From Candidatus Multivoradales bacterium (lineage in GTDB: Bacteria; Acidobacteriota; Thermoanaerobaculia; Multivoradales; JAHEKO01), in the NCBI GenBank assembly GCA_965223155.1, contig CBDCVR010000015.1, positions 768,001 to 832,000 on the forward strand: DNA of 64,000 bases. The letters run 5' to 3'. How positions within the stretch are numbered: the first letter of the stretch is position 1; the number at the start of each line of letters is the position of its first letter. Positions 31,151-64,000 of the stretch are shown in pieces. The notes beneath the pieces were generated by a model that saw only the letters and a program-made list of their open reading frames with translations, did not search any database and was not told the DNA's origin. The position numbers and the translations under genes were made by a program.

Positions 31151-31223
31151 GGGTCCATAGCTCAGCGGTTAGAGCATCCGGCTCATAACCGGCAGGTCCC
31201 TGGTTCGAATCCAGGTGGACCCA
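31151..31223 (+). tRNA. tRNA with CAT anticodon, probably Ile2 (lysidine-modified); CCA not encoded
   Basis: GGGTCCATAGCTCAGCGGTTAGAGCATCCGGCT-CAT-AACCGGCAGGTCCCTGGTTCGAATCCAGGTGGACCCA. Paired 1:72 means it is not fMet; Ile2 versus elongator Met is inferred. TATACT -10 at 31121. Confidence 0.9.
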
Positions 31224-46910: not shown

Positions 46911-47453
46911 ATGACTTGGTTGATCTTCGCGCTCATGACCGTGGCCTCCTGGGGGCTCTACGGCGTCTTTCTGCACGCCGGCCAGTCCGCCATGGGCGAT
47001 CCGGAGCTGGGCCGGTACAAGGCGTTCCTGTTCGTGGGGATCGCCTACTTCGTGACCGCGGTGCTGGCGCCGCTCGCGATTCTGGCCGGCGGCGGCACCG
47101 ACTGGTCGTTTCCCTCGGGCGGGATTCTCTGGTCGCTCCTGGCCGGCCTCGTCGGCGCCGCGGGCGCCTTCTGCGTGCTACTCGCCTTCGGCGCCAAGGG
47201 CAGCCCGGCGGTCGTCATGTCGATCATCTTTGCCGGGGCACCGATCGTCAACGCCATCGTGGCCCTTGCCTGGCATCCGCCGGCTGGCGGCTTCGGCTCG
47301 CTACGCTGGCAATTCGTCGCCGGCATTCTCCTGGCTGCCCTGGGCGGCTTCCTGGTCACGAAGTACAAGCCCGCACCGGGACCGGGTTCGGCCGCCGGGC
47401 CGGCGCCCGCCCAGACCGTAGCTTCCGCCCAGCCGTCCGAGCTTTCCGACTAG
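46911..47453 (+). CDS. Small 5-TM membrane protein (EamA/DMT-like half transporter)
   Basis: MTWLIFALMTVASWGLYG...VMSIIFAGAPIVNAIV; about 5 hydrophobic helices; GGGAG RBS. Confidence 0.8.
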   Translation: MTWLIFALMTVASWGLYGVFLHAGQSAMGDPELGRYKAFLFVGIAYFVTAVLAPLAILAGGGTDWSFPSGGILWSLLAGLVGAAGAFCVLLAFGAKGSPAVVMSIIFAGAPIVNAIVALAWHPPAGGFGSLRWQFVAGILLAALGGFLVTKYKPAPGPGSAAGPAPAQTVASAQPSELSD

Positions 47454-48544
47454 GGCCTGCTCCCGGAACTACGGCTGCCACGGTCCGGCCGGATCAGCAC
47501 CTTGACGCAGCCGGCTTCGCGCCGGGCGAAGCGCTCGTACATGGCGGGCGCTTCTTCGAGCCCGATGCGGTGGGTGAGCATGGCGGCTAGCTGCCGGCCG
47601 CGCCGGGCGGCTAGCTCCAGGGCCTCTTCGAGATAGGCGCGTGCCGAGCACCGGCCGGCGCGGTAGGTCAGGTTCTTGTCGTAGAGCTCGCCGGGAGAGA
47701 ACGCAAAGCCCGCCTCGGTATGAACGCCTGCCGCCGCGATCGCGCCGCCGCTCCGAACGAGATCGAAGGCCAGCCGCGAGGCCTCCGGCGAGCCCACCAG
47801 CTCGAGCACCGCGTCGGCGCCCCGGCCCGAGGTCGCCTCTCGCAGGCGCGCGCCCCCTTCGTCGGGCGCGAGCGCCGTCGCCCCGAAGCTTTCCGCCAGC
47901 TTCCGGCGGCTGGCCACGGGGTCGAGCGCAAACACCTTCTCCGCGCCGCGCTCGAACGCCGCCAGGATCGCCGCCAGGCCCACCGGGCCGCAGCCGACGA
48001 CCGCGGCACGGGTCCCCAGCCGGACACCGGCGGCGTCGGCGGCAAAGAGCCCGGTGGCGAGAACGTCGCCGGCCAGAAGCAAGCACTCGGCCGCAGTCTC
48101 GGTGCCAGCAGCGGCCTCGTCAGCGCCCGGCAGAGCGACCAGGGTCGAGTCGGCCATCGGCACGCGCACAAACTCGGCCTGGCCGCCGTGAAGTCCCCGA
48201 CCCTCCTCGCGCCAGCCGAAGAGCTGGCCGGACTCGCAGCGGGCAGTGAGTCCCCGAGCGCAGAAGAAGCACTCCCCGCACGAGGTCGAAAACGGGGCCA
48301 CGACCCTGCTGCCGACGTCAATCCCAGCCTCCGCGCCCCGTGCCACCACGCGGCCGAGGAATTCGTGCCCCATGACGGTGCCGGCCTCGAGACCCGGCTC
48401 GCGGCCGGTGAAGGGATGGAGATCCGAGCCGCAAATCGCCGCCACCTCGATCTGGACGATCACGTCTGTCGAGGCCTCAAGCCCCGGATCTTCGACCGTC
48501 TCGGCCGCGACTTCGAAGGGCTGGTGAAAGACGAGCGCCCTCAT
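47450..48544 (-). CDS. Zinc-dependent alcohol dehydrogenase (MDR)
   Basis: ICGSDLH, GHEFLG, CGECFFCARGLTARC and GCGPVG motifs; start MRALVFH. Confidence 0.92.
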   Translation of the reverse strand: MRALVFHQPFEVAAETVEDPGLEASTDVIVQIEVAAICGSDLHPFTGREPGLEAGTVMGHEFLGRVVARGAEAGIDVGSRVVAPFSTSCGECFFCARGLTARCESGQLFGWREEGRGLHGGQAEFVRVPMADSTLVALPGADEAAAGTETAAECLLLAGDVLATGLFAADAAGVRLGTRAAVVGCGPVGLAAILAAFERGAEKVFALDPVASRRKLAESFGATALAPDEGGARLREATSGRGADAVLELVGSPEASRLAFDLVRSGGAIAAAGVHTEAGFAFSPGELYDKNLTYRAGRCSARAYLEEALELAARRGRQLAAMLTHRIGLEEAPAMYERFARREAGCVKVLIRPDRGSRSSGSRP

Positions 48545-48764
48545 ACCGCGGGAAGTATCTCCCGACTTCGCAGAATCCAGGCCAAACACTGCAACCTCTG
48601 ACGTCTCACACGTAGTTCTCTTGGAGGTTCGACCGAGCGTGGGGCCGAGAGCTTGGCTCCGGCAGACGGCTCGCCGGCCCCAACAGCCGGCGCAACGCTT
48701 TCGGTAAGATCGGGCCTCTTGCGCCCGGTTCGGGCAACACTCCATCAGCAAGGAATTTCAAGCT

Positions 48765-51074
48765 ATGCAACGAATGGCGATTCTCCTTTCCGTGGCTGGC
48801 CTCGCCGCGGCCTGCGCCTCAACGCCGGCCGCCGCGCCGCCGCCGGCCGGCGCACCCAGCGCCACCGCGAGGACCGAACAGGTCAAGGCGGCAGTCCCCG
48901 CTACTTCGACCCACTGGTGGGCTCACTGGCGCGGACCCTCTCGCAACGGCGTTTCCGCCGAGACCGGGCTCATCTCGAGCTGGTCGATTGACGGCGAGAA
49001 CCTTCTCTGGAAGGTGCCGCTGGTGGCGCGCTCGACCCCGATCGTCCTGGGCGACCGGGTGTGCACGAATGGCCGGGTTGGAGAGGACATCCTCCGTCAG
49101 GAAATGGTTGCCTGCTTCGACGTCGCCACCGGCGAGAAGCTCTGGGAGCACCGCTTCAACGTCTTCCACACTTCGGTGCCCTGGACCCGAGTCGGCTGGG
49201 CCAACCTGGCCGGCGACCCCGAGACCGGCTACCTCTACGCCCAGGGTGTCGCCGGGATCTTCTTGTGTCTCGACAGCGCCACCGGCGAGGTCGTCTGGTC
49301 GCGACGCTTCATCGAAGAGTACGGCTTCATGGAGGGCTACGGCGGGCGCACTCAGACGCCGCTGGTGGACGGCGACAAGGTCGTCATCACTTTCTCGAAT
49401 ACTTCCTGGGGTAGCGAGGGCCGGCCGCTTCATCGCCTGCGGGCCTTCGACAAGCGCACCGGGGAGCTCCTCTGGGTCTCGCAGCCGGCGCCGTCTCAGG
49501 CCGACAAGAACACCCAGTCCACGCCCAATGTGCTCGAGGTAGACGGCCGGCGCCTGATCGTCGCCGGCAACGGCGGCGGCGGCATCTACGCGGTCGAAGC
49601 CGAGACCGGCGAGCCGGTCTGGGGCTTCCAGCTTTCGAAGCGCGGCATCAACACCTCCGTCGTCGTCGACGGCACCCGCGTCTTTGCCTCGCACTCCGAG
49701 GAGAACTTCGACGAAGGCTCGATGGGCCGGGTGGTCGCGATCGACGGCACCGGCTCGGGCGACGTCACCGCGACCCACGAGATCTGGCGCGCGCCGATCT
49801 CGGCCGGGTTCGGCTCCCACGCCTTGGCCGACGGCGTGCTCTACGTGCTTGACAACTCGGCCAATCTCTACGCCCTGGACGCCGATACCGGCGAAGCCTT
49901 CTGGGAGCTCAATATCGGCCGGGTCGGCAAAGCCTCGCCGGTCCTGGCCGACGGCAAGCTCTACGTCACCGAGGTCAATGGCCAACTGGTCATCCTCGAG
50001 CTGGGCGACGGCGAGCCGGAGATCCTGGACATCGAAGAGATACCGATGCCGGACGGGCGAGCCGCCGAGATCTACGGCTCGGTCGCCATCGCCGACGGCC
50101 GCATCTTTTTCACCACCGAGGAGGGTCTCTACGCCTTGGGCGGCGAGGGAGCGGGAACCGGCACCGACACGGCGACGGCCGCCGCGACCCGGTCCGGCGC
50201 CGGCCCGGCGAGCGATTCACCTACCGGTCCGGCCGCGCGATTGCGCGTCGTGCCGGCGGACGTGACCCTGCGCTCGGATGAGTCGGCCGACTTCCGCGCC
50301 CTGGCGTTCGACGCCACCGGCCGGCCGCTGGGCGAGCAAGCCGTAACCTGGTCGCTCGCCGGTCTAGACGGATCGATCGACGCCGACGGCGTCTACGACC
50401 CCGAGGGCTCGCCCTCGAGTACCGGGTTCGTAGTCGCCACGGTCGGCGACCTCGAGGCCCGCGGCCGGGTGCGAGCTCTCAGCCATCTGCCCCTGGAAGA
50501 AGACTTCGAATCGACCGAACCGGGAGCCAAGCCTCCGTACATGATGGCCTATCTTGCCCGCTTCGCGGTCGCGGACCTCGACGGCAACCGCGTTCTCGCC
50601 AAGGGCCCCTCCCCGGTCAAGATCCACCGGCACATCACCTTCCTGGGACACCCGGACGAGTCCGGATACACCATCGAAGCCGATCTGATGGGGACCCGCA
50701 AGCGGCGCACGATGCCCGACGTCGGCCTCATCAACTCGGGCTACACGATGGAGTTGCTGGGCAATCACCAGCGCGTGCAGGTACGGTCCTGGCAGTCGGG
50801 CTTACGCATGATGCAGCAGATCGATTTCGCCTGGAGCGAAGACACCTGGTACCGGATGAAGCTCTCGGTCGACACCGAGGGGTCCGGCGCCGACGCCAAG
50901 GCCGTGGTGCGCGGCAAGGTCTGGCCCAAGACCGAAGCCGAACCCGAGGACTGGACGATCACGGTCGAGGATCCCCTGCCGATCCCACGCGGCGCGCCCG
51001 GCCTGTCCGGTTACTCACCGACGCCGATCTACTTCGACAACATTCGGGTCGTCTCGAACGACCAGGCTCATTAG
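48765..51074 (+). CDS. PQQ-like beta-propeller lipoprotein with C-terminal Ig-like and beta-sandwich domains
   Basis: Lipobox LAAAC; WAHWRGPSRNG; repeated A/C-x-D-xx-TG-xx-W blades. Confidence 0.85.
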   Translation: MQRMAILLSVAGLAAACASTPAAAPPPAGAPSATARTEQVKAAVPATSTHWWAHWRGPSRNGVSAETGLISSWSIDGENLLWKVPLVARSTPIVLGDRVCTNGRVGEDILRQEMVACFDVATGEKLWEHRFNVFHTSVPWTRVGWANLAGDPETGYLYAQGVAGIFLCLDSATGEVVWSRRFIEEYGFMEGYGGRTQTPLVDGDKVVITFSNTSWGSEGRPLHRLRAFDKRTGELLWVSQPAPSQADKNTQSTPNVLEVDGRRLIVAGNGGGGIYAVEAETGEPVWGFQLSKRGINTSVVVDGTRVFASHSEENFDEGSMGRVVAIDGTGSGDVTATHEIWRAPISAGFGSHALADGVLYVLDNSANLYALDADTGEAFWELNIGRVGKASPVLADGKLYVTEVNGQLVILELGDGEPEILDIEEIPMPDGRAAEIYGSVAIADGRIFFTTEEGLYALGGEGAGTGTDTATAAATRSGAGPASDSPTGPAARLRVVPADVTLRSDESADFRALAFDATGRPLGEQAVTWSLAGLDGSIDADGVYDPEGSPSSTGFVVATVGDLEARGRVRALSHLPLEEDFESTEPGAKPPYMMAYLARFAVADLDGNRVLAKGPSPVKIHRHITFLGHPDESGYTIEADLMGTRKRRTMPDVGLINSGYTMELLGNHQRVQVRSWQSGLRMMQQIDFAWSEDTWYRMKLSVDTEGSGADAKAVVRGKVWPKTEAEPEDWTITVEDPLPIPRGAPGLSGYSPTPIYFDNIRVVSNDQAH

Positions 51075-51125
51075 AACCCCCTTCAGAAAACGACCCGTTC
51101 TTTCGACCGAGAGGAACCCAAGACA

Positions 51126-52610
51126 ATGAAACGGCAACTTTCCGCGCTTGCCGGCGCGCTTCTCCTCGCCGGCGCCGCCGCACCCGGAGTCGCGGCCGAT
51201 TCCGCCATGTTCGGCGGCACGCCTTCCCGCAACATGATCTCGGCCGAGACCGGCCTTCCGTCCGGCTGGGATCTCGAATCCGGAGCCAACGTTCGCTGGC
51301 GCCAGCGTCTGGGCTCGCAGAGCTACGGCGGGCCGGTGGCCTTCGGCGGCACGATTTACGTCGGCACCAACAACGAGGCGCGCCGGGATCCCAGGTTCGA
51401 CGGGGATCGCGGCAACATGATGGCCTTCGACGTCAAGACCGGCGAGTTCTTGTGGCAGTCCGCCCACGGCAAGCTCCCCGCCGGCCGGGTCCACGATTGG
51501 CCGCTCCAGGGCGTCTGTTCCGGCCCGTACGTCGAGGGGGACCGCCTCTACTACGTCTCGAACCGGGCCGAGGTCATCGCCGCGGACACCCAGGGCTTCC
51601 GGGACGGGGAGAACGACGGGGCGGTTACCGACGAGGAACACACCTCGGAGACCGACGAGGACGTGCTCTGGAAGCTCGACATGATCGGCGAGCTCGACGT
51701 CTTCCCGCACAACCTGGCGGCCGGCAACCCGATCGTGGTCGGCGATCTCCTGTACACGGTCACCGGCAACGGCGTCGATGAGGGCCACATCAACGTGCCC
51801 TCGACGGTCGCGCCCAGCCTGATCGCGGTCAACAAGAACACGGGCGAGCTGGTCTGGGAGTCGCTTCACCCGGGCGAGAAGATCCTTCACGGCCAGTGGT
51901 CGAATCCGGCCTACGGAATCGTCGCCGGCAAGGAACAGCTCGTCTATCCGGGCGGCGACGGCTGGATGTACTCGCTCGACGCCAAGACCGGCGAGCTCAT
52001 CTGGAAGTTCGACGCCAACCCCAAGGACTCGATCTGGGAGCTCGGCGGCAGCGGCACGCGCAACAACATCATCTCGACCCCGGTGATCTACAAGGACCGC
52101 GTCTACATCGGCGTCGGCCAGGATCCCGAGCACGGCGAGGCCCCCGGGCATTTCTGGGTCATCGACGCCACGCAGACCGGTGACGTCACCGACACGGCCG
52201 TGGTCTGGCATCGGGGCGGCGAGGACTTTCACCGCACGATTTCCACCGCCGCGATCGCCGACGGCATCCTCTACATCGCGGATCTTTCGGGCTTCCTCTA
52301 CGCGCTGGACGCCGAGACCGGTGAGCACTTCTGGACCTACGATGCCTTCGCCGCCATCTGGGGCTCGGCCTACGTCGCCGACGGCAAGGTTTACCTGGGC
52401 GACGAGGACGGCGACATCGCGATCCTGAAGGCCGGCAAGGGCCAAGACGGCGAGCCCGAGCTCCTCGAGGAGCTCAACCTGGGAAGCGCCGTCTACACCA
52501 CGCCGATCGCCCACGACGGCGTTCTCTACATCGCCAGCCGCAACATGCTCTTCGCCTTCGAGGAGGGCGCTCAAGAGACCACGCCGCCAGGCGAGGAGGC
52601 GTCCGAGTAG
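51126..52610 (+). CDS. Secreted PQQ-like beta-propeller protein
   Basis: Signal peptide; MFGGTPSRN; repeated DxKTGExxW blades. Confidence 0.85.
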   Translation: MKRQLSALAGALLLAGAAAPGVAADSAMFGGTPSRNMISAETGLPSGWDLESGANVRWRQRLGSQSYGGPVAFGGTIYVGTNNEARRDPRFDGDRGNMMAFDVKTGEFLWQSAHGKLPAGRVHDWPLQGVCSGPYVEGDRLYYVSNRAEVIAADTQGFRDGENDGAVTDEEHTSETDEDVLWKLDMIGELDVFPHNLAAGNPIVVGDLLYTVTGNGVDEGHINVPSTVAPSLIAVNKNTGELVWESLHPGEKILHGQWSNPAYGIVAGKEQLVYPGGDGWMYSLDAKTGELIWKFDANPKDSIWELGGSGTRNNIISTPVIYKDRVYIGVGQDPEHGEAPGHFWVIDATQTGDVTDTAVVWHRGGEDFHRTISTAAIADGILYIADLSGFLYALDAETGEHFWTYDAFAAIWGSAYVADGKVYLGDEDGDIAILKAGKGQDGEPELLEELNLGSAVYTTPIAHDGVLYIASRNMLFAFEEGAQETTPPGEEASE

Positions 52611-52648
52611 GCACGACGAGTCCGGCTCGCCCAAGAAAGACCCGTACC

Positions 52649-53740
<1,092 letters not shown>

Positions 53741-53756
53741 GCCGGGAGCCGGCGGC

Positions 53757-55196
53757 ATGATCCACATCCCGGTTCTACGCGCGGGCAAGCCCTACCGGAG
53801 TCTCGCGACGTCCGTCCTGGGCCACCTCGGCACCGGCGAGCCGGTGGCCGAGATCGGCCAGGCCAACGCCGGCCTCATCGCCCGGGATCTCGGCCGCGCG
53901 GCCGAGGGCCGCCGGGCGCTCGAGGCGCTTTCGACCTCGGAGCTCCTGGCAATCTCGCAACGGGCGGGTGCGCTCTTTGCCGAGGGCGAGCTGCCTCTCG
54001 GCGACGGCTCGCAGAGCGCCGAGGACTACATCCGCCAGGTGTCGGCCACCACCGGCCTGCCCCAGGTGATGGCGCGAGCCAACATGGCCAAGGCCCAATT
54101 CGTCCTGGAGGAGATGGAGACCGTCCTGGGCGGGTTGACCCGCGGGCTGGATCTGGAGGTCCTGGACCGCGGCTTTGGCGAGCAGGACGGCCGCATGGTT
54201 TCGTACCGGCGCGAGACCGACGCCCTGGGCGCTGTCCTCCCCAGCAACTCTCCGGGCGTCCACTCGCTTTGGATCCCGGCGATTCCGCTCAAGACCGGCC
54301 TCGCGCTGCGCCCGGGTAGCCGCGAGCCCTGGACGCCGTACCGGCTGGCCCAAGCGCTCATCGCCGCCGGCTGTCCGGAAGAGGCCTTTGGCTTCTACCC
54401 ATCGGACCACGGCGGCGCCCGCCAGATCCTGCTTCGCTGCGGCCGCTCGCTGCTCTACGGCGACCGCGCCACGGTCGAGCCCTGGCGCGCGGACCCAGGG
54501 GTGCAGATTCACGGTCCGGGCTGGAGCAAGGTGGTCCTGGGCGCCGACGGCGCCGAAGACTGGCCGGAGGCGGTCGAGACCATCGTCGCGTCGATCGCCG
54601 ACAACGGCGGACGCTCCTGCGTCAACGCCTCGGGCGTCTGGACCGCGGGCCACGGCCGAGCCCTCGCCGAGGCCGTGGCCGAGCGCCTCGCAGCGATCGA
54701 AGCGCTGCCGCTCGACCATCCCGAAGCTCGCCTGGCCGCTCTCCCGAGCCGGCGAGCCGCCGAGGCCCTGTCGGGCGTTCTGGACGCCCAGATCGCCCAA
54801 GGCGGCGCCGAGGACGTCACCGGGCGCTTTCGCTCGGGCGGCCGGGTGCGCGAGATCGACGGCTGCTGGTTTGTGCTGCCGACGCTGGTCTGGTGCGACC
54901 AGCCAAGCCACCCGCTGGCCTCGGCCGAGTATCTCTTCCCCTTCGCCGCGGTGGTCGAGCTGCCGCAGAACCGGCTCGTTGACGAGCTGGGGCCCAGCCT
55001 GGTGGTCACCGGCATCGGCAAAGACGAAAGCTTCCGCCATGATCTCTTGACGGCCACCCACGTCGAGCGGCTCAACTTCGGGCGGATCCCAACCAGCCGA
55101 GTGGCTTGGGACCAGCCCCACGAAGGCAACCTCTTCGACCATCTCTACCGGCAACGATCGTTTCAGGGCGTCGGCATCACCCATCCGGCGGCCTGA
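53757..55196 (+). CDS. Atypical aldehyde dehydrogenase / acyl-reductase (EhpG/LuxC-like)
   Basis: VLPSNSP; catalytic GGRSCVNAS; EYLFPF; HGPGWSK in place of the canonical ELGGK. Confidence 0.8.
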   Translation: MIHIPVLRAGKPYRSLATSVLGHLGTGEPVAEIGQANAGLIARDLGRAAEGRRALEALSTSELLAISQRAGALFAEGELPLGDGSQSAEDYIRQVSATTGLPQVMARANMAKAQFVLEEMETVLGGLTRGLDLEVLDRGFGEQDGRMVSYRRETDALGAVLPSNSPGVHSLWIPAIPLKTGLALRPGSREPWTPYRLAQALIAAGCPEEAFGFYPSDHGGARQILLRCGRSLLYGDRATVEPWRADPGVQIHGPGWSKVVLGADGAEDWPEAVETIVASIADNGGRSCVNASGVWTAGHGRALAEAVAERLAAIEALPLDHPEARLAALPSRRAAEALSGVLDAQIAQGGAEDVTGRFRSGGRVREIDGCWFVLPTLVWCDQPSHPLASAEYLFPFAAVVELPQNRLVDELGPSLVVTGIGKDESFRHDLLTATHVERLNFGRIPTSRVAWDQPHEGNLFDHLYRQRSFQGVGITHPAA

Positions 55197-55212
55197 GCCG
55201 CCCTCTCCGCCC

Positions 55213-56379
55213 ATGATCTCCGCCGCCCTCGAACGGGAGTCGACCACCGACTCGTGGACCGAAGAGCTCAACGGCATTGTCCTCCACGCCGGCGCCGGCG
55301 CAGCCCGGGAGCTGGGCGAGCTGGCGCGGCGGACCGGCGGCCGCCGGGCGCTCCTGGTAACCGACCCCGGCCTCGAGGCCGCCGGCCACGCCCCCCGCGC
55401 GCGCGCGGCCCTCGAGAACGCGGGCGTTGTTGCCAGCCTATTCACCGGAGTCCACCAGAACCCGTCGGCCTCGGAAGTGGCGCGAGGCGCCGACGCCGCC
55501 CGCGAGCTGGGCGCGGATCTCCTGGTCGCTCTGGGCGGCGGCAGCGCGCTCGACTGCGCCAAGGGAATCAACTTTCTGCTCAGCAACGGGGGCACCATCG
55601 CCGACTACTGGGGCTACGGCAAGGCCTCGAAGCCGATGCTGCCGATGATAGCCGTGCCCACCACCTGCGGCACCGGCAGCGAAGCCCAGACGTACGCGCT
55701 GATCTCGGACGATAGGACCCACCGCAAGATGGCCTGCGGCGATCCCAAGGCCAAGTTCGCCCAGGTCGTCCTGGACCCGGAGCTCCTGCCCACCGCCCCG
55801 TTCGAGGTCCGGGCCAATGCCGGCCTCGACGCCATCTCCCACGCCGTCGAGGCCCGGGTGACGGCCCGGCGCAACCAGAGCTCCGACGCGCTCGCGGAGC
55901 GCGCCTTTGCGCTCCTGGACGGCGCCATCGAGTCCGTCCTCGAGCGCTCGACCGCGGACTCTTCCGAGAGGCAGGCCGCCTTCGGCCGCATGCAGTGGGG
56001 CGCCCACCTGGCCGGCGCCGCTATCGAGCAGTCCATGCTCGGGGCCGCCCACGCCGCCGCCAATCCACTCACGGCTCGCTTCGGTATCGTCCACGGCGAG
56101 GCCGTAAACCTCATGCTGCCTCACGTCGTACGATTCAATGCGGAGGGCGCGCGCGAGCAGTACGAGCGCCTGGTGGCGGCCGGCCCCGAAGCTCTGGCCG
56201 GGCGCATCGAGACGTTGCGCGCGCGCGCCGAACTGGCGGAGAGATTGCAGGACCGGGAGGTGCCGAGGGAGGCGATTCCCGACCTGGCCCGGATGGCAAC
56301 TCGAGAATGGACCGGACATCACAACCCGAGACCGCTTACGGCGGAGGACTTCGCAGGGCTCTATGAATTGGCGTACTGA
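55213..56379 (+). CDS. Iron-containing alcohol dehydrogenase
   Basis: GGGSALDCAK, PTTCGTGSE, DAISHAVE, GAAHAAAN and HGEAV motifs. Confidence 0.93.
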   Translation: MISAALERESTTDSWTEELNGIVLHAGAGAARELGELARRTGGRRALLVTDPGLEAAGHAPRARAALENAGVVASLFTGVHQNPSASEVARGADAARELGADLLVALGGGSALDCAKGINFLLSNGGTIADYWGYGKASKPMLPMIAVPTTCGTGSEAQTYALISDDRTHRKMACGDPKAKFAQVVLDPELLPTAPFEVRANAGLDAISHAVEARVTARRNQSSDALAERAFALLDGAIESVLERSTADSSERQAAFGRMQWGAHLAGAAIEQSMLGAAHAAANPLTARFGIVHGEAVNLMLPHVVRFNAEGAREQYERLVAAGPEALAGRIETLRARAELAERLQDREVPREAIPDLARMATREWTGHHNPRPLTAEDFAGLYELAY

Positions 56380-57516
56380 CACGCTCGGGCGCTGCCTCGC
56401 GACGACGGTCGCGGCGGCCGCGCTCCTCTCCGCTCCGGGCACGCAAGCCCGGGCCGACTGGAACCAGTTTCGGGGCGATCCGGAGCTGAGCGGCCTTGCC
56501 GACGGGACTCTTTCCTCCGAGTTGGTGCCGCTCTGGACCTTCGACGCCGGGGAAGCGATCGAATCGAGCGCCGCCATCGCCGGCGGCAAAGTCTTCGTGG
56601 GCACGCTCGATGGCACACTCCACGCTCTGGATCTAGCCGACGGCACCAAGCTCTGGCAGGTCGAGACCGGGCTCGAGATCAAGTCCTCGCCGGCGGTTCG
56701 CGACGGTGTCGTCTTCTTCGGCGACGAGACCGGTGTGTTTCGAGCCGTTGCCGCCGACTCCGGCGAGGTGCTGTGGAGCCACGAGACCGATGGCGCTATC
56801 GCCTCGTCGGCAAATTTCGTGGGCGAGCTTGTCGTCTTCGGCTCCTACGACCAGTTCCTCTACGCTCTGGACCGCGAGACCGGTGAGCTGGCCTGGCGGA
56901 TCGAGACCGACAACTATGTCCACGCCACCCCGGCCATCAGCGGTACGACCGCGATGGTCGCCGGCTGCGACGGCTACTTTCGCAAGGTTGACGTGCGCGA
57001 CGGGACCGATGCCGGCAAACTCGAGATTGGTCCTACGTAGCAGCAAGCATGGCGATTCAAGGCCAGCGCGCGTTCTTCGGGACCTTCGATAACGAGGTTC
57101 TGGCCGTGGACTGGCACAGCGACCGCATCTTGTGGCGATACGACAACCCGGACAAGGACTTTCCCTTCTACTCATCTGCGGCTCTCGCCGGCGATCTGGT
57201 GATCGTGGGGGGGCGCGACAAGCTGGTCCACGCACTCGACGCGGCCACGGGAGAGCTGGTCTGGAGTTTCTTGACCCAGGGGAAGATCGACGCCTCTCCG
57301 GTGGTGGTGGACGATGCGGTCTTCGTACCGTCCATGGACGGCACGCTGTACCGCCTCGACACCGCGACTGGCAAAGAGACCTGGCGCTATGAGCTGGCCG
57401 AACCGATGCTAGCCTCGCCCGCGGTCGCCGCCGGCACGCTCGTCCTGGGCACTCTCGACGGGACCGTCTTCGCTTTCGGAGCCCGTGCGGCTCCAAGCTC
57501 GGGAGCCGAACGATGA
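56363..57516 (+). pseudogene. PQQ-like (BamB-like) beta-propeller gene split by an apparent 1-nt deletion near 57030 (pseudogene or sequence error)
   Basis: Frame 1 (MNWRTD...DWNQFRGD...KLEIG) stops at 57040; the shifted frame continues SYVAASMAIQGQRAFFGTFD... with further blades to 57516. Confidence 0.8.
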
Positions 57517-58862
57517 CCCAAACCGACCCCGCGACCGCCGTCGGCCCTCTGTCGCAAGCACCAAAGGCGGACGAGCAGGAGCTGGGAAGCGTCTTCGTCT
57601 CGAACTATCCGCCTTACTCGGCCTGGTCCGAAGGGGCGGTGGGGGCCGTGCGCTCCCGCCTCTCCGAGGTTCCCGAGCCCGACACTCCCTTCGGCCTCTA
57701 CCTCCACATCCCGTTCTGCCGCAAGCGCTGCAAGTTCTGCTACTTCCGGGTCTACACCGATAAGAACTTCGACGAGATCGGCGCCTACCTCGACGCCCTC
57801 GGCCGCGAGATCGAGCTCTACGCGTCGCTTCCGGCCGTGGCCGGCCGCCGGCCGCGCTTCGTCTACTTCGGCGGCGGCACGCCTTCGTACATCAGCGTCA
57901 AGCACCTCGAGGCACTGGTCGCGCGGGTCCAGGCCGCGATCGCCTGGGACGGTGCCGAAGAGATCGCCTTCGAGTGCGAACCCGGCACTTTGACCCAGGC
58001 CAAGCTCGAGGCCATCCGCGGTATCGGCGTCACCCGCCTGTCGCTCGGCATCGAGAACTTCGACGACGACATCTTGCGCGAAAACGGCCGGGCTCACGTC
58101 TCGAAAGAGGTCGACCGCTGCCTGCCCTGGATCCACGACCTCGAGTTTGACCAGCTCAACGTGGATCTCATCGCCGGCATGATCGGGGAGACCTGGGAGA
58201 AATGGCGAGCCACGGTCGCCCGAACCATCGCCGCGGACCCGGACAGCGTCACCATCTATCAGCTCGAGCTGCCGTACAACACGCGCTTCACTCGCAGCAT
58301 CCTGGATGGCACGAAGGAGATCCCGGTCGCCGACTGGGATCTCAAACGAGACTGGCACGGCTACGCCATCGACGAGTTGGAGGGAGCCGGCTATGAGATC
58401 TCGAGCGCCTACACCATGGTCAAGAAGGGCACCGGCAGCCGCTTCGTCTATCGCGACTCGGTCTGGGCCGGCTGCGACCTTCTGGGAACCGGAGTGGCCT
58501 CGTTCTCGCACATCGGCGGCGTCCACTTTCAAAACGCCGACGGCTGGGGCGAGTACATGGCGCGGCTGCGCGCGGGCGAGCTGCCTCATGCGCGGGCCCT
58601 GGCAACCTCCGGGACCGATCGATTGATCCGCGAGTTCATTCTGCAGCTCAAGCTGGGGCGGCTCCGGACCGAGCCCTTTCGAGAGAAGTTCGACATCGAT
58701 CCGATCGCCCACTTCGCCGCTCCCCTCGAGCGGCTGGCCGGCGGCGGTTGGCTGGAGATCTCGAACGGCACCATCACGCTCACCCGGCAGGGCCTTCTCA
58801 GGGCGGACAGCCTGCTGCCGAATTTCTACGAAGAGGCCTACCAAGGCGCTCGCTACACCTAA
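57513..58862 (+). CDS. HemN-like radical SAM enzyme (function unassigned)
   Basis: SNYPPY; LYLHIPFCRKRCKFCYF; YFGGGTPS; RLSLGIE; NVDLIAG; ATGA overlap with the upstream gene. Confidence 0.9.
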   Translation: MTQTDPATAVGPLSQAPKADEQELGSVFVSNYPPYSAWSEGAVGAVRSRLSEVPEPDTPFGLYLHIPFCRKRCKFCYFRVYTDKNFDEIGAYLDALGREIELYASLPAVAGRRPRFVYFGGGTPSYISVKHLEALVARVQAAIAWDGAEEIAFECEPGTLTQAKLEAIRGIGVTRLSLGIENFDDDILRENGRAHVSKEVDRCLPWIHDLEFDQLNVDLIAGMIGETWEKWRATVARTIAADPDSVTIYQLELPYNTRFTRSILDGTKEIPVADWDLKRDWHGYAIDELEGAGYEISSAYTMVKKGTGSRFVYRDSVWAGCDLLGTGVASFSHIGGVHFQNADGWGEYMARLRAGELPHARALATSGTDRLIREFILQLKLGRLRTEPFREKFDIDPIAHFAAPLERLAGGGWLEISNGTITLTRQGLLRADSLLPNFYEEAYQGARYT

Positions 58863-58941
58863 AGGCAGCCCGTTCTCGAAACCCTAGACGGACGATCTGC
58901 GTACCGATCTCGATCGGTTCGAAACGACAGGGAGAACTCTC

Positions 58942-61095
58942 GTGCTCAAGACCATGACTTGGACCGCCGCCTTCGTTGCGGCGTGGTCTCTGGCGGTGCC
59001 CGCCACCAACGTCCGTGCCGCCCAGGCCCGGACCGAGGCCGTGGCTCAGACCGAATCGACCGAAGAGGTCGCGGCTCGGCCCGAGGCCGAGTACAGCGAG
59101 GTCGTGCTGGTGGAGGAAAGCCTTCCCTTCGTGGCGGAATCGAACACGATCGCGACCAAGCTGGCGCTCGAGCTCGGCCGGACTCCGGCCAACGTCGGGA
59201 TCGTGGATCTCGAGCTCCTGACCGAACAGGACAACCGGATCCTGGGCGACGCCCTTGAGAACATCAGCGGCACCAATGTCCACACCGGCAACGGAGTCTT
59301 CGATTTCTTCGTCCTGCGCGGCTTCGACTCGATCACCAGCGGCCTGGTCCTGACCGATGGCGCTCCCGAGCCCGAGGCCAGCTTCTACCAGATGTACAAC
59401 ACCGAACGCGTCGAGGTCTTCAAGGGACCGGCCGGGTTCCTCTACGGCAGCAATCCGCTCGCGGGCGTCGTCAACCTGGTTCGCAAGCAGGCGGTTCCGG
59501 CCGACTTCGGGCTGGTCGAGGTGGGCTTCGGATCCTTCGGCTCCGCCGAGAGCCGTCTTGACTGGAACGGCTCGACCGACGACGGACGCCTCAGCTTCCG
59601 TTTGAATGGCATGCTGCGCGAGAGCGACGGCTACCGCGACGGCCGCGAGTCGGAGGTCACCGCGGTCAACCCGACGATCTCATGGCGGCCGGGTGAGCGC
59701 ACCGCGCTCAGCGTCAACTTCGAGGTGGCAAACGCCGACTACACGCCGGACGCAGGCCTGCCGCTTCTCGGCTCCGAGCTGCCGAACGTGCCGCGCAAGC
59801 GCTCCTACGCGTCACCCTTGGACTTCTCGGAGCAGGACATCACCCGCTTCCAGGTGGATTTCGAGCACGCCTTCTCGGACACCCTCGAGCTGCGCAACAA
59901 GCTCTACCTCCGGGAGCTCGACTGGCAGACCACCGGCACCCTACTGGCCGGCGTCTTCCCGATCCCTCTCGGACCGGGCGCGCCCGAGCTCCAGGTGTTT
60001 CGCAACCTCACGACTCTCGACGACGAGCAGCGCTTCGTGGGCAATCAATTCGAGATGATCTGGCGGCCGGCGGGCTCGCGGCACGAACTCCTGGCCGGCG
60101 TCGAGGTCGCGCGCCTCCAGGACGACTTCGCGCTCGACGTCTTCTTTCTTCCCTTCATCGGGCTGGAGTCCCCGCTCGAGACCACGGTCGCCGACGAGCT
60201 CGTCCCGGTGCCTGGCCAGGCCACCCGCGGGCGCTCCACGGCTGACGTCGTGGCCCCGTATCTGATCGACCGGTTCCAGGCTTCGGACCGGGTGCTGATC
60301 CTGGCCGGGGCCCGCTTCGACTCGATCGACTTCGAAGATCAGGCCACCGGTACCCAGAGGAGCCACAGCGAGATCAGTCCCATGCTGGGTCTGGTCTTCG
60401 AGCCCCGGCAGGGGACCGCGCTTTACGCCAACGTCGCGGAGTCCTTTGCGCCACCGTCGCCTCGAGTCGTCGGCGACCGCGAGCCCGAACAGAGCCGTCA
60501 GGTCGAGGTTGGTATCCGGCGCCAGTTCCTGGGCGGCAAGCTCACCTCGACTCTCGCAGCCTTCCGGCTCGAGCGCGACAACATCGCCATTCCCGACGAC
60601 AACGGCTTCACCCAGCAGGCCGGTGACCAGGAGTCACAAGGCCTAGAGCTCGAGCTCGCCGGATCGTTCGGCGGCGGCGGCCGGGCGGCGTTCAACTACG
60701 CCTACACCGACAGTGAGCTGACCCGGTTCCGGGAGGTCGTCTTCGGCCCCGACGGCAGGTTTCTGGTGCTCGACCGCTCCGGCAACGCCTCCGCTTTCGC
60801 ACCCAGGCATCTGGCCAACTTGTGGCTGAGCAAACCGTTTCGGGCCTTTCGCGTCGGCGGCGGCTTGCGCTGGATCGACGATCAGTTCATCGCGGAAGAC
60901 AATGGCGCCGAGATTGACGGCCACCTGCTGGTCAACGGCGCGGTGTCCTACGGCCGGGACCGCTGGCGCCTGGCCCTGAGGCTGCGCAACCTCACCGACG
61001 AGGACTACGAGACTCGCGGCTTCGGATCGAGCGCCGTTATTCCCGGCGATCCGCTGTCGGCGACGTTGTCGTTCCAGGTTCGTCTTGGCGGCTGA
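58942..61095 (+). CDS. TonB-dependent outer-membrane receptor
   Basis: Signal peptide; plug motifs ATKL...TPANV, FVLRGF and ERVEVFKGPAGFLYG...GVVNLVRK; C-terminal NLTDEDY. Confidence 0.93.
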   Translation: MLKTMTWTAAFVAAWSLAVPATNVRAAQARTEAVAQTESTEEVAARPEAEYSEVVLVEESLPFVAESNTIATKLALELGRTPANVGIVDLELLTEQDNRILGDALENISGTNVHTGNGVFDFFVLRGFDSITSGLVLTDGAPEPEASFYQMYNTERVEVFKGPAGFLYGSNPLAGVVNLVRKQAVPADFGLVEVGFGSFGSAESRLDWNGSTDDGRLSFRLNGMLRESDGYRDGRESEVTAVNPTISWRPGERTALSVNFEVANADYTPDAGLPLLGSELPNVPRKRSYASPLDFSEQDITRFQVDFEHAFSDTLELRNKLYLRELDWQTTGTLLAGVFPIPLGPGAPELQVFRNLTTLDDEQRFVGNQFEMIWRPAGSRHELLAGVEVARLQDDFALDVFFLPFIGLESPLETTVADELVPVPGQATRGRSTADVVAPYLIDRFQASDRVLILAGARFDSIDFEDQATGTQRSHSEISPMLGLVFEPRQGTALYANVAESFAPPSPRVVGDREPEQSRQVEVGIRRQFLGGKLTSTLAAFRLERDNIAIPDDNGFTQQAGDQESQGLELELAGSFGGGGRAAFNYAYTDSELTRFREVVFGPDGRFLVLDRSGNASAFAPRHLANLWLSKPFRAFRVGGGLRWIDDQFIAEDNGAEIDGHLLVNGAVSYGRDRWRLALRLRNLTDEDYETRGFGSSAVIPGDPLSATLSFQVRLGG

Positions 61096-61096
61096 C

Positions 61097-62338
61097 GTGT
61101 TCGGTCGCGACTCGTACGACATCGTCGTGGCCGGTGGCGGACCGGCCGGCGCGACGGTAGCAACGCTTCTCGCCCAGCAGGGCCACTCTACGCTCCTCCT
61201 GGAGCGCAGCGCCGAGCCGTATTTCAAGATCGGTGAGTCGCTGATGCCCGCGACCTACTGGATTCTGGAGCGCCTCGGGGTGCTCGAGACGATGTACGAG
61301 AGGGCTTTTCCGAAGAAATACAGCGTCCAGTTCTTCTCCTCCGACGGCTCGGCCTCGACGCCGTTCTACTTCCGCGAGCACGACCCCCACCCCAGCTCCC
61401 AGACCTGGCAGGTCTTGCGGAGCGAGTTCGACCAGATGCTCCTGGATCAGGCCGCGGCCACCGGCGTCGAGGTCCGGCGCGGCGCCACCTTGAAGGATGT
61501 CCTCTTCGAAGAGGCTCGCGCCGTGGGCGTCGAGGTAGAAGCCGGCGGCGAGCTCGCACGCGTGGCCTGTCGCGTTCTTATCGACGCCACTGGCCAGCGG
61601 GCGTTTCTGGGCGGCAAGCTCGGGCTCTTGGAGATCGACCCACAGCTCAAGCACGCGTCGTTTTTTACCCACTTCCGGGGTGGGTTCCGCGACCAAGGCA
61701 TCGACGAAGGAGCCACGATCATCCTCCACACCGAGGGCAGGAGATCTTGGTTCTGGTCCATTCCGCTGCCCGACGACACGGTCTCGATCGGCGTCGTCGG
61801 AGGCGTCGATCACCTGATCCTGGGCCGCTCGAAGGATCCGCAGAACACCTTCGACGAAGAGCTCGCCCGCTGTCCGGCCCTGAGCCAGCGGCTCGAGGGC
61901 GCCGAGCAGCTCTACCCGATCCGCGCCATCCGGGACTTCTCCTACCGTGCCCGCGATCTGGCCGGCGACGGCTGGGTCCTAGTCGGCGATGCCGCGGGCT
62001 TCCTGGATCCGGTTTACTCGACCGGGGTCTTCCTGGCGCTGAAGTCGGGCGAGATGGCCGCCGACGCCGTCCACGAGGCGCTCGCGCAGGGTGACCTCTC
62101 GTCCGCGGCCCTGGGTTCGTTCGTACCCGAGCTCCGGCGCGGCGTCGAAGCCATGGGCAAACTCGTCTACGCCTTCTACGACCCCGAGTTCTCCTTCGGC
62201 CGCTTTCTCAAGACCTACCCCGAGTGCCGAGGCGAGCTGGTAGACATGCTGGTCGGCAACGTCTTTCGCAAGCCGCTGGACCGCCTCGAGGCCGCGCTCG
62301 ATGTCGAATCGAACCGCGCCCGGACGGCGCCAGCCTGA
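61097..62338 (+). CDS. Flavin-dependent halogenase-like FAD oxidoreductase
   Basis: GGGPAG, KIGESL, FPKK, WFWSIP and GDAAGFLDPVYSTG motifs; GTG start 1 nt after the receptor stop (TTG 61085 is an alternative). Confidence 0.85.
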   Translation: MFGRDSYDIVVAGGGPAGATVATLLAQQGHSTLLLERSAEPYFKIGESLMPATYWILERLGVLETMYERAFPKKYSVQFFSSDGSASTPFYFREHDPHPSSQTWQVLRSEFDQMLLDQAAATGVEVRRGATLKDVLFEEARAVGVEVEAGGELARVACRVLIDATGQRAFLGGKLGLLEIDPQLKHASFFTHFRGGFRDQGIDEGATIILHTEGRRSWFWSIPLPDDTVSIGVVGGVDHLILGRSKDPQNTFDEELARCPALSQRLEGAEQLYPIRAIRDFSYRARDLAGDGWVLVGDAAGFLDPVYSTGVFLALKSGEMAADAVHEALAQGDLSSAALGSFVPELRRGVEAMGKLVYAFYDPEFSFGRFLKTYPECRGELVDMLVGNVFRKPLDRLEAALDVESNRARTAPA

Positions 62339-62743
62339 ATCCGATCGCTTCGGAGTAGCTGCCCGCGGCAGAAGTCCCAACGGTCGCGCGCCGTTTGGCA
62401 CGCGCGACTAGAGCTCCACCCGGGGGTGAGCGGCGTCAATCCGAAAACCGCGGGTCTGAGCCCCAGGGCCTCAAAGATCTCGGGCCGGACGTCTAGAAAC
62501 ACCGGAGGTCCTCCACCGTCGACAACAATCCGGCCGCCTGCCGCCCAACAGCTCGGTCGAACTGACGACTCATGAATCGCGCCTGCATCCGGCTCCGCTT
62601 GGGCACTCTCGCTACGGCGACCATCTCGGCCACTATCTTGCACGCTCAGGGTCACTCGGACAACTCACTTCGTTCCCCGCAGGCCCGAAGCCAAGGATTC
62701 CGTTCCGTTGAACATTCGGGGCTTCAATTTCTTGGAGAAACCG

Positions 62744-64000
62744 ATGCCATCAGTGCCTCGCCGCCATTCGTTCCGCCCCGGACCGACTTTCGCAATCCTG
62801 CTCCTAGCTGCAATGGTCTCGGCCGCCCCGGCTGACGCTCAGCAAGACCTGGGAAGCTGGACCCAGCTTTCATCGATGCCGTTCTCGAATGCCGAGTTCG
62901 GGAGTGCCACCATTGGCGGCAAGATCTATCTCGCGGGCGGCTTCGCCGAGGAAACGGCTCTGCTCGTCTATGACGTCGCGAGCGACTCCTTCAGTCGAGG
63001 TCCGGACCTGCCGGAGGGCAATCACCATCCAGGCGTCGCCACGGTCGGTGGACGCCTCTACGTCTTGGGCGGCCATGAGACCGAAGACCTGGTCCAGATC
63101 TACGATCCCGACACCGGCACCTGGAGTGAGGGCGCACACCTGCCGACTCCACGGCGGGCCTTCGCGACCGTGGTGCTGAGGGGCAAGATCCATGTCATCG
63201 GCGGTACCGACAACCCCAGTGGCGGCGGCGGCGGTCTCGCGGCTCACGAGGTCTACGACCCGGCGACCGATCGCTGGTCGGTGGCGGCACCGTTATTGGA
63301 AGCCCGAGAGCACGTGTACGGTGGCGCTATCGGGAGCAAGATCTATATCGCCGCCGGCCGCGTGGGCGTCTTCGTTCCCCAGGACGAGCTCCAGATCTAT
63401 GATCCGGTTCGGGACGAATGGACTCTGGGCCCGCCGCTGATCGAAGAGACCAGCGGCCATGCGGCGCAGGTGGTCGACGAACAGCTTTTCGTTTTCGGCG
63501 GCGAGCTGGTCTTCGCCGACCGGGTGCTGCGGCGAACGCAGCGCTATGATCCAGCGCTCCGCCGCTGGGACGAGCTCGCCCAGTTGCCGATGCCGCTCCA
63601 TGGCCTCGGCAGCGCGGTGCACCGAGGCTCGATCTATCTCTTCGGAGGCGCCACCGCGGTCGAGGCCGCCAGCACCGGCCAGAGCTCGGTCTGGAGATTC
63701 GACCCACCCAAGCGGCAGGTTGCCGAGGTGCCGCGCCGGCTCCGCGTCAAGGTCCGGTCTTCGAGAAAGGTTCTGCTTAAATGGAAGTTCCGGCACCGAC
63801 TCTCGGACGCCACCGGCATCGACATCCAGGCCCGCCGCGCCCGCGGACCGTTCCGCACGATCGCAACCCGGCCTGCTCGCGCGCGCAGGATCGTGCTCAC
63901 CGGGCTCGACGCCGGAGGTACCTACGCCTTCCGCGTGCGCGCCACCGGCCCCTCGGGCAAGGGTGCGCCGTCGAACACGGTCTCGGTCACCATGCCGGAC
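62744..64000 (+). CDS. Secreted Kelch-repeat protein with fibronectin type III domain (runs off the right edge)
   Basis: My own translation: MPSVPRR...AILLLAAMVSAAPADA signal; GGKIYLAGG, GGRLYVLGG and GKIHVIGG kelch blades; GLDAGGTYAFRVRA...SNTVSVT FN3. GGAGA RBS. Absent from the track because it has no stop. Confidence 0.88.
   Translation, partial: MPSVPRRHSFRPGPTFAILLLAAMVSAAPADAQQDLGSWTQLSSMPFSNAEFGSATIGGKIYLAGGFAEETALLVYDVASDSFSRGPDLPEGNHHPGVATVGGRLYVLGGHETEDLVQIYDPDTGTWSEGAHLPTPRRAFATVVLRGKIHVIGGTDNPSGGGGGLAAHEVYDPATDRWSVAAPLLEAREHVYGGAIGSKIYIAAGRVGVFVPQDELQIYDPVRDEWTLGPPLIEETSGHAAQVVDEQLFVFGGELVFADRVLRRTQRYDPALRRWDELAQLPMPLHGLGSAVHRGSIYLFGGATAVEAASTGQSSVWRFDPPKRQVAEVPRRLRVKVRSSRKVLLKWKFRHRLSDATGIDIQARRARGPFRTIATRPARARRIVLTGLDAGGTYAFRVRATGPSGKGAPSNTVSVTMPD

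Follow-up and report, generated by a model that had tools for sequence, protein, structure and literature searches.

A conserved orphan operon combining a putative EhpF/EhpG-type carboxylic acid reductase and a predicted flavin halogenase with exported beta-propellers in Candidatus Multivoradales bacterium

Introduction

EhpF and EhpG have been proposed to act as a pair in the reduction of an aromatic acid. EhpF belongs to the phenazine pathway leading to D-alanylgriseoluteic acid in Pantoea agglomerans (structures 3hgu, 3hgv and 3l2k), and in EhpF/EhpG-type systems a gene of the aldehyde dehydrogenase (ALDH) kind directly follows the adenylating gene, as in a Burkholderia phenazine cluster. 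We analysed a stretch of 64,000 nucleotides (nt) from Candidatus Multivoradales bacterium (Acidobacteriota; assembly GCA_965223155.1, contig CBDCVR010000015.1, positions 768,001 to 832,000 of the forward strand), called the window here, in which an operon starting at position 48765 codes for a comparable pair of proteins, C and D, among nine genes named A to I. C aligns with EhpF from end to end and lacks the same ANL C-terminal domain, and the ALDH-type gene D directly follows gene C. In contrast to ehp-type clusters, which contain no propellers, halogenase, radical SAM enzyme, GT4 glycosyltransferase or ABC transporter, the operon contains all of these and no phenazine core genes, and in a quick tree the EhpF-like outgroups are separated from C by a very long branch.

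Another two-protein system belongs to grixazone biosynthesis in Streptomyces griseus. According to the accessible passages of PMC10179220, which cite Suzuki 2007, GriC forms the acyl-AMP of 3-amino-4-hydroxybenzoate (3,4-AHBA) and GriD reduces this acyl-AMP to the aldehyde, an ATP-dependent conversion of an aromatic acid to which we liken C and D by description only. Streptomyces homologues of C, annotated 'arylcarboxylate reductase', share 36-37% identity with it.

Several halogenases of the PltA type act on carrier-protein-bound substrates. The product of gene I has in common with halogenases of the PltA, Bmp2, Mpy16, CndH and CmlS type the motif for flavin adenine dinucleotide (FAD), the position of a lysine and the WxWxIP motif but, unlike the carrier-bound PltA-type systems, the operon contains neither a carrier protein gene nor a flavin reductase gene. 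The propellers share with BamB and the pyrroloquinoline quinone (PQQ) alcohol dehydrogenases their fold (Foldseek E value of 2e-20 to BamB, with PedH also matched) and the Pfam family PQQ_2. Unlike BamB and the quinoproteins, B has invariant loop motifs of its own and A carries additional Big_2 and jelly-roll domains.

Whole clusters with a similar gene content, named Halo_AMP, have been reported from sponge metagenomes by Loureiro et al. (bioRxiv 10.64898/2026.08.03.742642, 2026). In the accessible part of this preprint, the class is defined by two domains and comprises 267 families in 20 components, its clusters have no match in MIBiG and no assigned product, and the authors study a family that contains a P450. 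These clusters share with the operon the halogenase and AMP-binding genes, radical SAM, TonB-dependent transporter and PQQ-like genes, and host phyla, whereas the operon differs from the studied family in having no P450. The operon probably falls in this loose class, though it is not what the preprint's authors analyse. A preliminary description of the window had recognised no described pathway, and our results agree within the literature covered: no characterised match was found, and the literature on EhpF, EhpG, arylcarboxylate reductase and 6-formylphenazine yielded nothing on this operon.

We describe here a real, strongly conserved orphan operon in which known enzyme families form an uncharacterised combination. 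A putative carboxylate reductase, an iron-containing alcohol dehydrogenase (Fe-ADH), a HemN-like radical SAM enzyme, a predicted halogenase, a GT4 and a MacB-type exporter are combined in it with several importers and with exported propellers, of which there are three or four. New in this work are the extent of the operon, the predicted complex of C and D, the fold of the C-terminal part of A, the counts of co-occurrence between unlinked genes and the resolution of a frameshift in gene F.

Results and Discussion

Gene content and extent of the operon

The open reading frame (ORF) list confirmed nine co-directional genes with the coordinates and gaps that had been claimed for them, and matches to Pfam, NCBIfam and PDB sequences bore out the family call made for each. 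All nine lie on the plus strand. Gene A (48765-51074) encodes an exported lipoprotein of 769 amino acids (aa) with a PQQ_2/BamB-like beta-propeller (Pfam PQQ_2, 1e-35), a Big_2-like domain and a jelly-roll domain, and gene B (51126-52610) an exported eight-bladed propeller of 494 aa (Pfam PQQ_2). Gene C (52649-53740) encodes a stand-alone putative adenylating enzyme of 363 aa homologous to EhpF, gene D (53757-55196) its candidate reductase partner of the ALDH superfamily (479 aa; Pfam Aldedh, 2e-9) and gene E (55213-56379) an Fe-ADH of 388 aa (Pfam Fe-ADH, 6e-46; ADH_Fe_C, 3e-28). Gene F (56363-57516) codes for a third exported PQQ_2 propeller, which is split in the window, both halves matching PQQ_2, and gene G (57513-58862) for a HemN-like radical SAM enzyme of 449 aa (Pfam Radical_SAM and HemN_C). 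The product of gene H (58942-61095) is a TonB-dependent receptor of 717 aa with plug and TonB_dep_Rec_b-barrel domains, which a TIGR01783 score of 244.4 bits against a cut-off of 223.5 places in the siderophore-receptor subfamily. Gene I encodes a predicted flavin-dependent halogenase (Pfam Trp_halogenase/FAD_binding_3, with PDB matches) and ends at 62338; it begins either at a TTG at 61085 (417 aa) or at a GTG at 61097 (413 aa). The signal peptides of the exported proteins and the lipobox LAAC of A were read by eye only.

The gaps from A to E are 51, 38, 16 and 16 nt, E-F and F-G overlap, G and H are 79 nt apart, and the value at the H-I junction depends on the start of I, with a gap of 1 nt for the GTG start and an overlap of 11 nt for the TTG start. 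As had been stated in the preliminary description, none of the nine proteins has a polyketide synthase, non-ribosomal peptide synthetase or pqq domain in Pfam or NCBIfam.

The boundaries first given for the operon, nine genes over 13.6 kb, were not upheld, since the unit comprises about 16 co-directional genes over ~24.4 kb and extends past the right end of the window. In the coordinates of the contig (G000:C15, G000 being the genome of the window), the whole unit lies at G000:C15:816765-841207. Relatives belonging to two phyla have, downstream of I, genes for a sodium:solute symporter (SSF), a GT4, a 4HBT-type thioesterase, an ABC ATPase and a double-FtsX permease of ~1130 aa, and the SSF symporter gene follows I in 11 related loci. 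Beyond the window end, the plus strand of the contig carries an SSF symporter, a GT4, a 4HBT thioesterase, an ABC ATPase and an FtsX permease of 1152 aa at C15:833685-841207. The symporter, the GT4 and the permease, the last of which ends at C15:841207, are 77%, 71% and 58% identical, respectively, to their orthologues in the relatives. The thioesterase is YbgC/FadM-like and the permease, which is duplicated, is MacB/ADOP-like. The presence of a GT4 and an ABC/FtsX exporter in the operon suggests that its product would be glycosylated and exported.

Conservation of gene order and co-occurrence

The set of related loci was obtained by scanning one genome per species with C as the query and consists of the best 80 of 165 confirmed relatives. 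The window proteins were mapped on these 80 loci with flanks of 10 kb, and the denominators given here are the numbers of loci with enough flank. The loci are labelled Acidobacteriota/Thermoanaerobaculia, Poribacteria, Latescibacterota, Gemmatimonadota, KSB1, Calditrichia/Calditrichota, Polyangiaceae (a myxobacterial metagenome-assembled genome, MAG) and others, that is, at least seven phyla, and the identity of C across them ranges from 71 to 87%. In a collection of 5.8 billion proteins, the best 120 of at least 8000 candidates for C were all at least 74% identical to it. The preliminary description had set the co-localisation of homologues in other genomes as a test beforehand; the homologues are co-localised, with the gene order kept in 80 of 80 loci and deviating in none. 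Gene A was present in 66 of 72 loci, B in 69 of 75, D in 68 of 72, E in 38 of 68, F in 37 of 67, G in 35 of 65, H in 17 of 62 and I in 16 of 60, the lower counts for E to I being partly an artefact because the flank was only 10 kb. A gene order fixed to this extent is far beyond chance, and the results support the view that these genes form one conserved, co-inherited unit.

We also searched 301 sampled genomes of the window's phylum with C, B, G and I and compared the overlap of the positive lists by hand. C was found in 74 of the 301 genomes (E <= 1e-100), B in 81 (E <= 1e-80), G in 66 and I in 62 (both E <= 1e-100); the window genome and two unpublished ones, G158 and G057, each of which has a match to every one of the four proteins, are counted in all these tallies. 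Among the C-positive genomes, B was present in 74 of 74, G in 62 and I in 59, while among the 227 C-negative genomes, B was present in seven, G in four and I in three, mostly fragmented assemblies. The association of B with C does not depend on their proximity: at least 14 genomes have the two genes on one contig with a distance of more than 60 kb between them, and C, B and G lie at 1.12, 1.95 and 0.25 Mb, respectively, in genome G195 and at 4.40, 0.035 and 1.67 Mb in genome G094. The pattern is that of one functional module despite the kinship of the genomes, and the co-occurrence of B and C even where they are unlinked fits a functional tie of unspecified kind.

In the quick tree of C, most sequences group with others of their phylum; the number of label changes is 13, compared to a minimum of 6 and a mean of 41.2 after shuffling. 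This bears on the possibility that the operon is an ordinary cluster of specialised metabolism, of the 'Halo_AMP' class of sponge symbionts, which would make a halogenated antibiotic or signal and in which the propellers and the receptor would serve self-protection or re-uptake. The halogenase motifs of I are intact, as this explanation would have it, and the accessible part of the preprint (10.64898/2026.08.03.742642) reports that in Acidobacteriota, Latescibacterota and Poribacteria of sponges, clusters with halogenase and AMP-binding genes also contain radical SAM and TonB genes and frequently PQQ-like ones; however, the operon is also found in MAGs titled sand, soil and sediment, and roughly one in four of the genomes sampled from the phylum contains it. 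This wide occurrence, together with the fixed gene order, the very high identity across phyla and a tree that follows the phyla fairly well, makes the operon unlike patchy, fast-evolving antibiotic clusters, and we consider such a cluster a rather improbable explanation. Conservation across at least seven phyla, whose members here are mostly uncultured, is more suggestive of a physiological role than of an antibiotic that the cells could do without, and this role might be in the envelope or in the handling of a common environmental acid.

Several variants of the locus were observed. In Poribacteria, G was found elsewhere on the chromosome, at 60-61% identity, in three of the three chromosomes searched; in the two genomes fetched, a block of E-F-G-(PaaK-like ligase)-I lies 1.66 Mb and ~0.13 Mb, respectively, from A-B-C-D, and the C-terminal part of A is a separate lipoprotein gene in this phylum. 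Downstream of G, a fourth propeller forms a similarity cluster of 14 members from 13 loci, mostly of Acidobacteriota and Gemmatimonadota, and in ten of these 13 loci it is a gene for ~410-460 aa located between G and H. A PaaK-like ligase follows G in five loci of Poribacteria and Latescibacterota, all without the TonB receptor, H being missing from this variant. In the window, nothing is inserted after G.

Other differences between the loci were noted in passing. Two C-like genes are present in each of two genomes (G226 and G180), and the matches to C in the phylum fall into one group at 66-83% identity and another at 61-64%, which may be a paralogous or dispersed form. In five loci (L017, L035, L041, L042 and L050), four of them labelled Poribacteria, a two-gene insertion coding for an ATPase-like protein of ~400 aa and a protein of ~250 aa separates A from B; these genes look like mobile or defence-type passengers, as do small ORFs between C and D in other Poribacteria loci. 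A conserved gene for ~235 aa is located between C and D in locus L020 (11929-12636) and in 22 other loci, mostly Poribacteria, and gave a weak match to Vgb_lyase, a beta-propeller lyase (5e-7, below the cut-off). Four loci carry, between D and E, a gene for a protein of ~500 aa that is sulfatase-like by eye.

A putative two-protein carboxylic acid reductase

In a phmmer comparison with the PDB, residues 20-363 of C aligned with residues 21-366 of the EhpF chain (3l2k/3hgu, E value of 4e-45). Because C ends where EhpF ends, it is without the thioester-forming ANL C-terminal domain; Pfam returned a partial, weak AMP-binding match and no AMP-binding_C. The mean column identity of the alignment of C is 77%. 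In D, the sequence GGRSC aligned with GERC of methylmalonate-semialdehyde dehydrogenase 4e4g, and the predicted catalytic cysteine that it contains, Cys288, is invariant in 37 sequences. At the position of the ELGG-type motif in the 4e4g alignment, which we take to be that of the general-base Glu of hydrolytic ALDHs, D shows QIHGPG and no Glu, the alignment being weak there.

The succession of an EhpF-like gene and an ALDH-family gene recurs in a phenazine-type cluster of Burkholderia ubonensis and on a Halalkalicoccus plasmid, where it stands directly behind a sodium:solute symporter gene; over its full length, D is 30% identical to the ALDH partner of Burkholderia and 27% identical to that of the haloarchaeal plasmid. 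Structure prediction placed C and D in a complex with an ipSAE of 0.75, compared to 0.30 for the best control. The prediction was made with our own alignments, so that the calibration applies only approximately: 58 of 80 solved complexes attained this ipSAE mark, compared to two of 110 mismatched pairs. The prediction runs shared at least 83% of their contacts, with a predicted local distance difference test (pLDDT) value of at least 91 for the partner. The predicted interface comprises residues 176-182, 210-217, 237-247 and 278 of C and residues 15-17, 35-46, 222-226 and 242-246 of D, many of which are invariant. Homology, the recurring gene pair and the predicted complex thus support C and D as a two-protein carboxylic acid reductase of the EhpF/EhpG kind, in keeping with the acid-reduction enzymes proposed in the preliminary description.

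By analogy with EhpF and GriC, the substrate may be an aromatic or heteroaromatic acid. No gene of the GriH family (DHQS-II family) was found in the genome by a search whose control was positive in three archaea, so that 3,4-AHBA does not suggest itself as the substrate. A search for PhzA/B in the genome gave no match, the control search being equally silent. The assignment of C and D to LuxE and LuxC was rejected, as neither family was returned by Pfam and EhpF is a full-length match of C. In E, one Asp and three His columns, which we take to be the metal ligands of an Fe-ADH, are invariant in 39 of 39 sequences, and E scored below all NCBIfam equivalog cut-offs.

A different type of substrate is assumed if the operon specifies an envelope glycolipid. 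C, D and E would then reduce a fatty or other aliphatic acid, the alcohol would be glycosylated and extracted by the ABC/FtsX proteins, and the propellers would take part in its placement in the outer membrane. Heterocyst glycolipids are exported by DevBCA-type pumps, and the GT4, the YbgC/FadM-like acyl-CoA thioesterase and the duplicated MacB/ADOP-like permease of the operon would suit such a pathway; yet the relatives of C and D with a characterised or proposed function, GriC and EhpF as introduced above, act on aromatic acids, LuxC and LuxE families are not returned, and the enzymes of solved structure closest to I have pyrrole or phenol rings as their targets. Although Halo_AMP clusters match the glycolipid-exporter gene of the bartoloside cluster in the accessible part of the preprint (10.64898/2026.08.03.742642), we regard a glycolipid pathway as decidedly improbable.

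The predicted halogenase and the radical SAM enzyme

Comparison of I with solved flavin halogenases gave E values from 3e-64 to 3e-48, with 8zop (3e-64) and PltA (2e-53) and also with Bmp2, CndH and CmlS. I contains GGGPAG (GxGxxG), FPKKY, which aligned with FPKKF of PltA, and WFWSIP (WxWxIP). Its orthologues keep GxGxxG, the Lys of FPKKY, which is presumably the catalytic Lys, and WxWxIP in 14 of 14 sequences. I is thus predicted from its sequence to be a motif-complete flavin halogenase. A function as a quinone-cofactor maturase of the QhpG/LodB type was rejected, with scores of 138 and 104 bits compared to 187 bits for halogenases, all below cut-off, and the halogenase motifs complete.

The PDB matches of G include HemN (1olt, E value of 8e-34) and NocN, a methyltransferase of class C (9p2u, 1e-31), and CxxxCxxC and GGGTPS are invariant in 36 of 36 sequences. 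The scores of G were below the equivalog cut-offs of STM4012 (177 against 380 bits), HemN (165 against 325), HutW (164 against 400) and HemW (142 against 205). From these sequence comparisons G is assigned to the HemN-like superfamily only, and the scores below cut-off led us to reject it as a haem-degrading ChuW/HutW enzyme or as HemN.

The exported propellers

The C-terminal 290 aa of A were modelled with a pLDDT of 93 as a Big_2-like domain and a jelly-roll domain, for which the nearest solved folds found by Foldseek are carbohydrate-binding modules (CBMs) and lectin-like domains, including Big_2-CBM56 (7quz) and CBM66 (4b1m). The alignment of B (37 sequences, 64% mean column identity) contains about a hundred invariant columns, many of them in loop motifs rich in His, Asp and Glu (GQDPEHGE, FPHNLA, GVDEGH and DWPxQGxC). 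The model of B is an eight-bladed propeller (pLDDT of 85) with BamB, PQQ alcohol dehydrogenases and tetrathionate hydrolase as nearest folds, and most of the invariant columns fall in its least confident loops. In this model the invariant loops resemble a site of catalysis or of ligand binding more than they do a scaffold. The ESM Atlas returned only generic PQQ/BamB names for B.

Known functions of such propellers were tried and rejected. As PQQ dehydrogenases (TIGR03075/TIGR03074), the propellers scored 54-61 bits against a cut-off of 480, and as BamB (TIGR03300/NF008351), with which they share the fold alone, 58-92 bits against 285. In the 98.7%-complete genome there was no match to PqqC, for which the control was likewise silent everywhere, and no match to PqqE above cut-off.

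An explanation centred on B is that the operon makes a new propeller cofactor or ligand, a possibility raised in the preliminary description: the cytoplasmic enzymes would build or remodel a molecule, perhaps from an imported acid, which would be exported and installed in the propellers, with B as the main recipient, in parallel to PQQ and the quinoproteins. No other genes accompany C and D as closely as A and B do (66-69 of 72-75 loci), and such a role would account for B never being missing beside the reductase, even when the genes are megabases apart, in contrast to its presence in seven of the 227 C-negative genomes. Dozens of invariant polar residues in low-confidence loops of an otherwise confident model are what one might expect of a site that requires a ligand, and the results for PqqC and PqqE agree with a molecule other than PQQ. 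However, the same co-occurrence is expected if B has an enzymatic role, either on the product or in the release of the substrate, the propellers reach only 60 of the 480 bits required by the models for quinoprotein dehydrogenases, and the GT4 and the MacB-type exporter are less in keeping with a prosthetic group than with a glycoside or glycolipid. The strict co-occurrence of B and C thus keeps the idea alive while the GT4 and the exporter weigh against it, and we consider it unlikely. Its more specific form, in which B and its companions would be a new class of exported eight-bladed propeller enzymes and a halogenated and methylated molecule derived from an imported acid would be their prosthetic group or an obligatory ligand, appears quite unlikely to us; if true, it would provide a counterpart to PQQ and the quinoproteins in phyla without PQQ synthesis.

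Importers and proposed pathway

In addition to the TonB receptor and the SSF symporter, a TAXI-TRAP transporter (fused DctM and TAXI binding protein) is encoded on the minus strand at C15:841204-844266, convergent with the end of the operon. Homologues of the TAXI binding protein, with 54-58% identity, are found directly after I in three Poribacteria loci (L080, L094 and L095), and TAXI-TRAP may be a lineage-variable importer of the same system. Three kinds of importers are therefore linked to the operon, one of which, the SSF symporter, also stands beside the haloarchaeal EhpF-like pair, and together with the CBM-like fold of A they suit a route of uptake followed by catabolism or detoxification. 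A compound from outside would be bound or released by A and the other propellers and imported by the TonB receptor, the symporter and TAXI-TRAP; the cytoplasmic enzymes would then degrade or detoxify it, in which case E and D might catalyse oxidations. We do not think such a route likely, as C lacks the ANL C-terminal domain needed for the formation of a CoA thioester, D shows no Glu at the putative general-base position (with the reservations on that alignment given above), the operon contains no genes for ring cleavage or beta-oxidation, and the operon has features typical of biosynthesis, namely a glycosyltransferase, an exporter and a halogenase with complete motifs.

The reading that we propose instead, tentatively and with somewhat less than even confidence, is that the operon specifies a small-molecule pathway whose product ends in the cell envelope, an acid being reduced to an alcohol, halogenated, modified, glycosylated and exported to the propellers. 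A carboxylic acid would be imported through the TonB receptor in the outer membrane and the symporter in the inner membrane, with the adjoining TAXI-TRAP transporter, or would be supplied from within the cell. C would adenylate this acid, the acyl group would pass to Cys288 of the C-bound D and be reduced to the aldehyde, and E would reduce the aldehyde to the alcohol. I would halogenate the molecule, which G would methylate or otherwise alter. The GT4 would then glycosylate it, and the ABC ATPase and the double-FtsX permease would move the product out of the cytoplasmic membrane. In the periplasm or at the outer membrane, A, B and F would bind or transform this product or a precursor of it.

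This scheme takes the gene content, order, conservation and co-occurrence described above as its observed basis. Homology, motifs or models support the predicted reduction by C, D and E and the halogenase motifs of I, and the C/D chemistry and the integrity of the halogenase are the sole parts with evidence beyond gene context. Uptake, glycosylation and export, the roles of the propellers, the nature of the substrate and the sequence of tailoring steps were deduced from gene context only. The preliminary description had postulated a dedicated pathway from an acid to a small molecule; the conserved unit and the C/D carboxylate reductase speak for this part of the claim, while its boundaries were drawn too narrowly.

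A number of results weigh against the biosynthetic pathway. The compared genomes are related and not independent, so that the co-occurrence counts overstate the statistics. At E <= 1e-100, I was absent from 15 and G from 12 of the 74 C-positive genomes, and H and I were each detected in only some 25% of the loci, as far as the retrieved flanks reach; because of these absences, halogenation and the radical SAM step are perhaps optional. An identity of 71-87% for C across phyla is unusually high for an enzyme of specialised metabolism. The operon contains no genes for a membrane-fusion protein or an outer-membrane channel, in addition to those for the flavin reductase and the carrier protein, and the occurrence of importers and an exporter in one operon fits several readings. 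Contact of the propellers with the product of the pathway is conjectural, being drawn from gene context.

The explanations considered here differ mainly in the role that they give to the propellers and in the direction in which matter flows. The product could be a new halogenated glycoside or a new propeller ligand. Its identification would assign a function to thousands of 'hypothetical' proteins, and its identity would account for the PQQ-like propeller genes found beside halogenase clusters in sponge symbionts.

Reading frame of gene F and flanking genes

In the window, F consists of two ORFs in different frames, at 56363-57040 and 57049-57516. Contigs from three of the three public runs that cover the site have one extra T behind position 57030, which yields a single F frame; these three runs represent one sample of one study, perhaps the window's own source, and a fourth run had no coverage. 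Of the F orthologues for which both halves were found, 36 of 36 are single ORFs of 362-416 aa. Since the public contigs restore the frame and all 36 orthologues are intact, the split is most likely an assembly error or a strain-level lesion and not a feature of the system. The missing T after 57030 suggests that homopolymer-type errors may be present elsewhere in this assembly.

Between I and the symporter gene, and 370 nt after I, the plus strand of the window carries a gene for a Kelch-repeat/fn3 protein (62708-64000; Pfam Kelch and fn3), which runs 3 nt beyond the window end. It is followed, at G000:C15:832153-833463 on the plus strand, by a gene for a class I/II aminotransferase (NF006388-like, 294 bits against a cut-off of 301). 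Neither gene has a counterpart in any related locus, and both are therefore regarded as lineage-specific insertions and not as members of the operon.

The left border was placed at a spacer of 220 nt (48545-48764), the presumed promoter region, because the genes upstream of A are all on the minus strand and belong to unrelated families (Zn-dependent alcohol dehydrogenase, TauE, peptidase, acyl-CoA oxidase and HtrA). The spacer separates A from the divergent gene for the Zn-dependent alcohol dehydrogenase (47450-48544, minus strand). A scan for sigma-70-like promoters and terminators, which is uninformative for this phylum, gave no site on the plus strand in 48000-64000. Rfam, applied to the window and four related loci, returned no riboswitch and no element in the left-border spacer. 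Its sole matches in the window were two tRNA genes, at 19391-19462 on the minus strand and at 31151-31223 on the plus strand.

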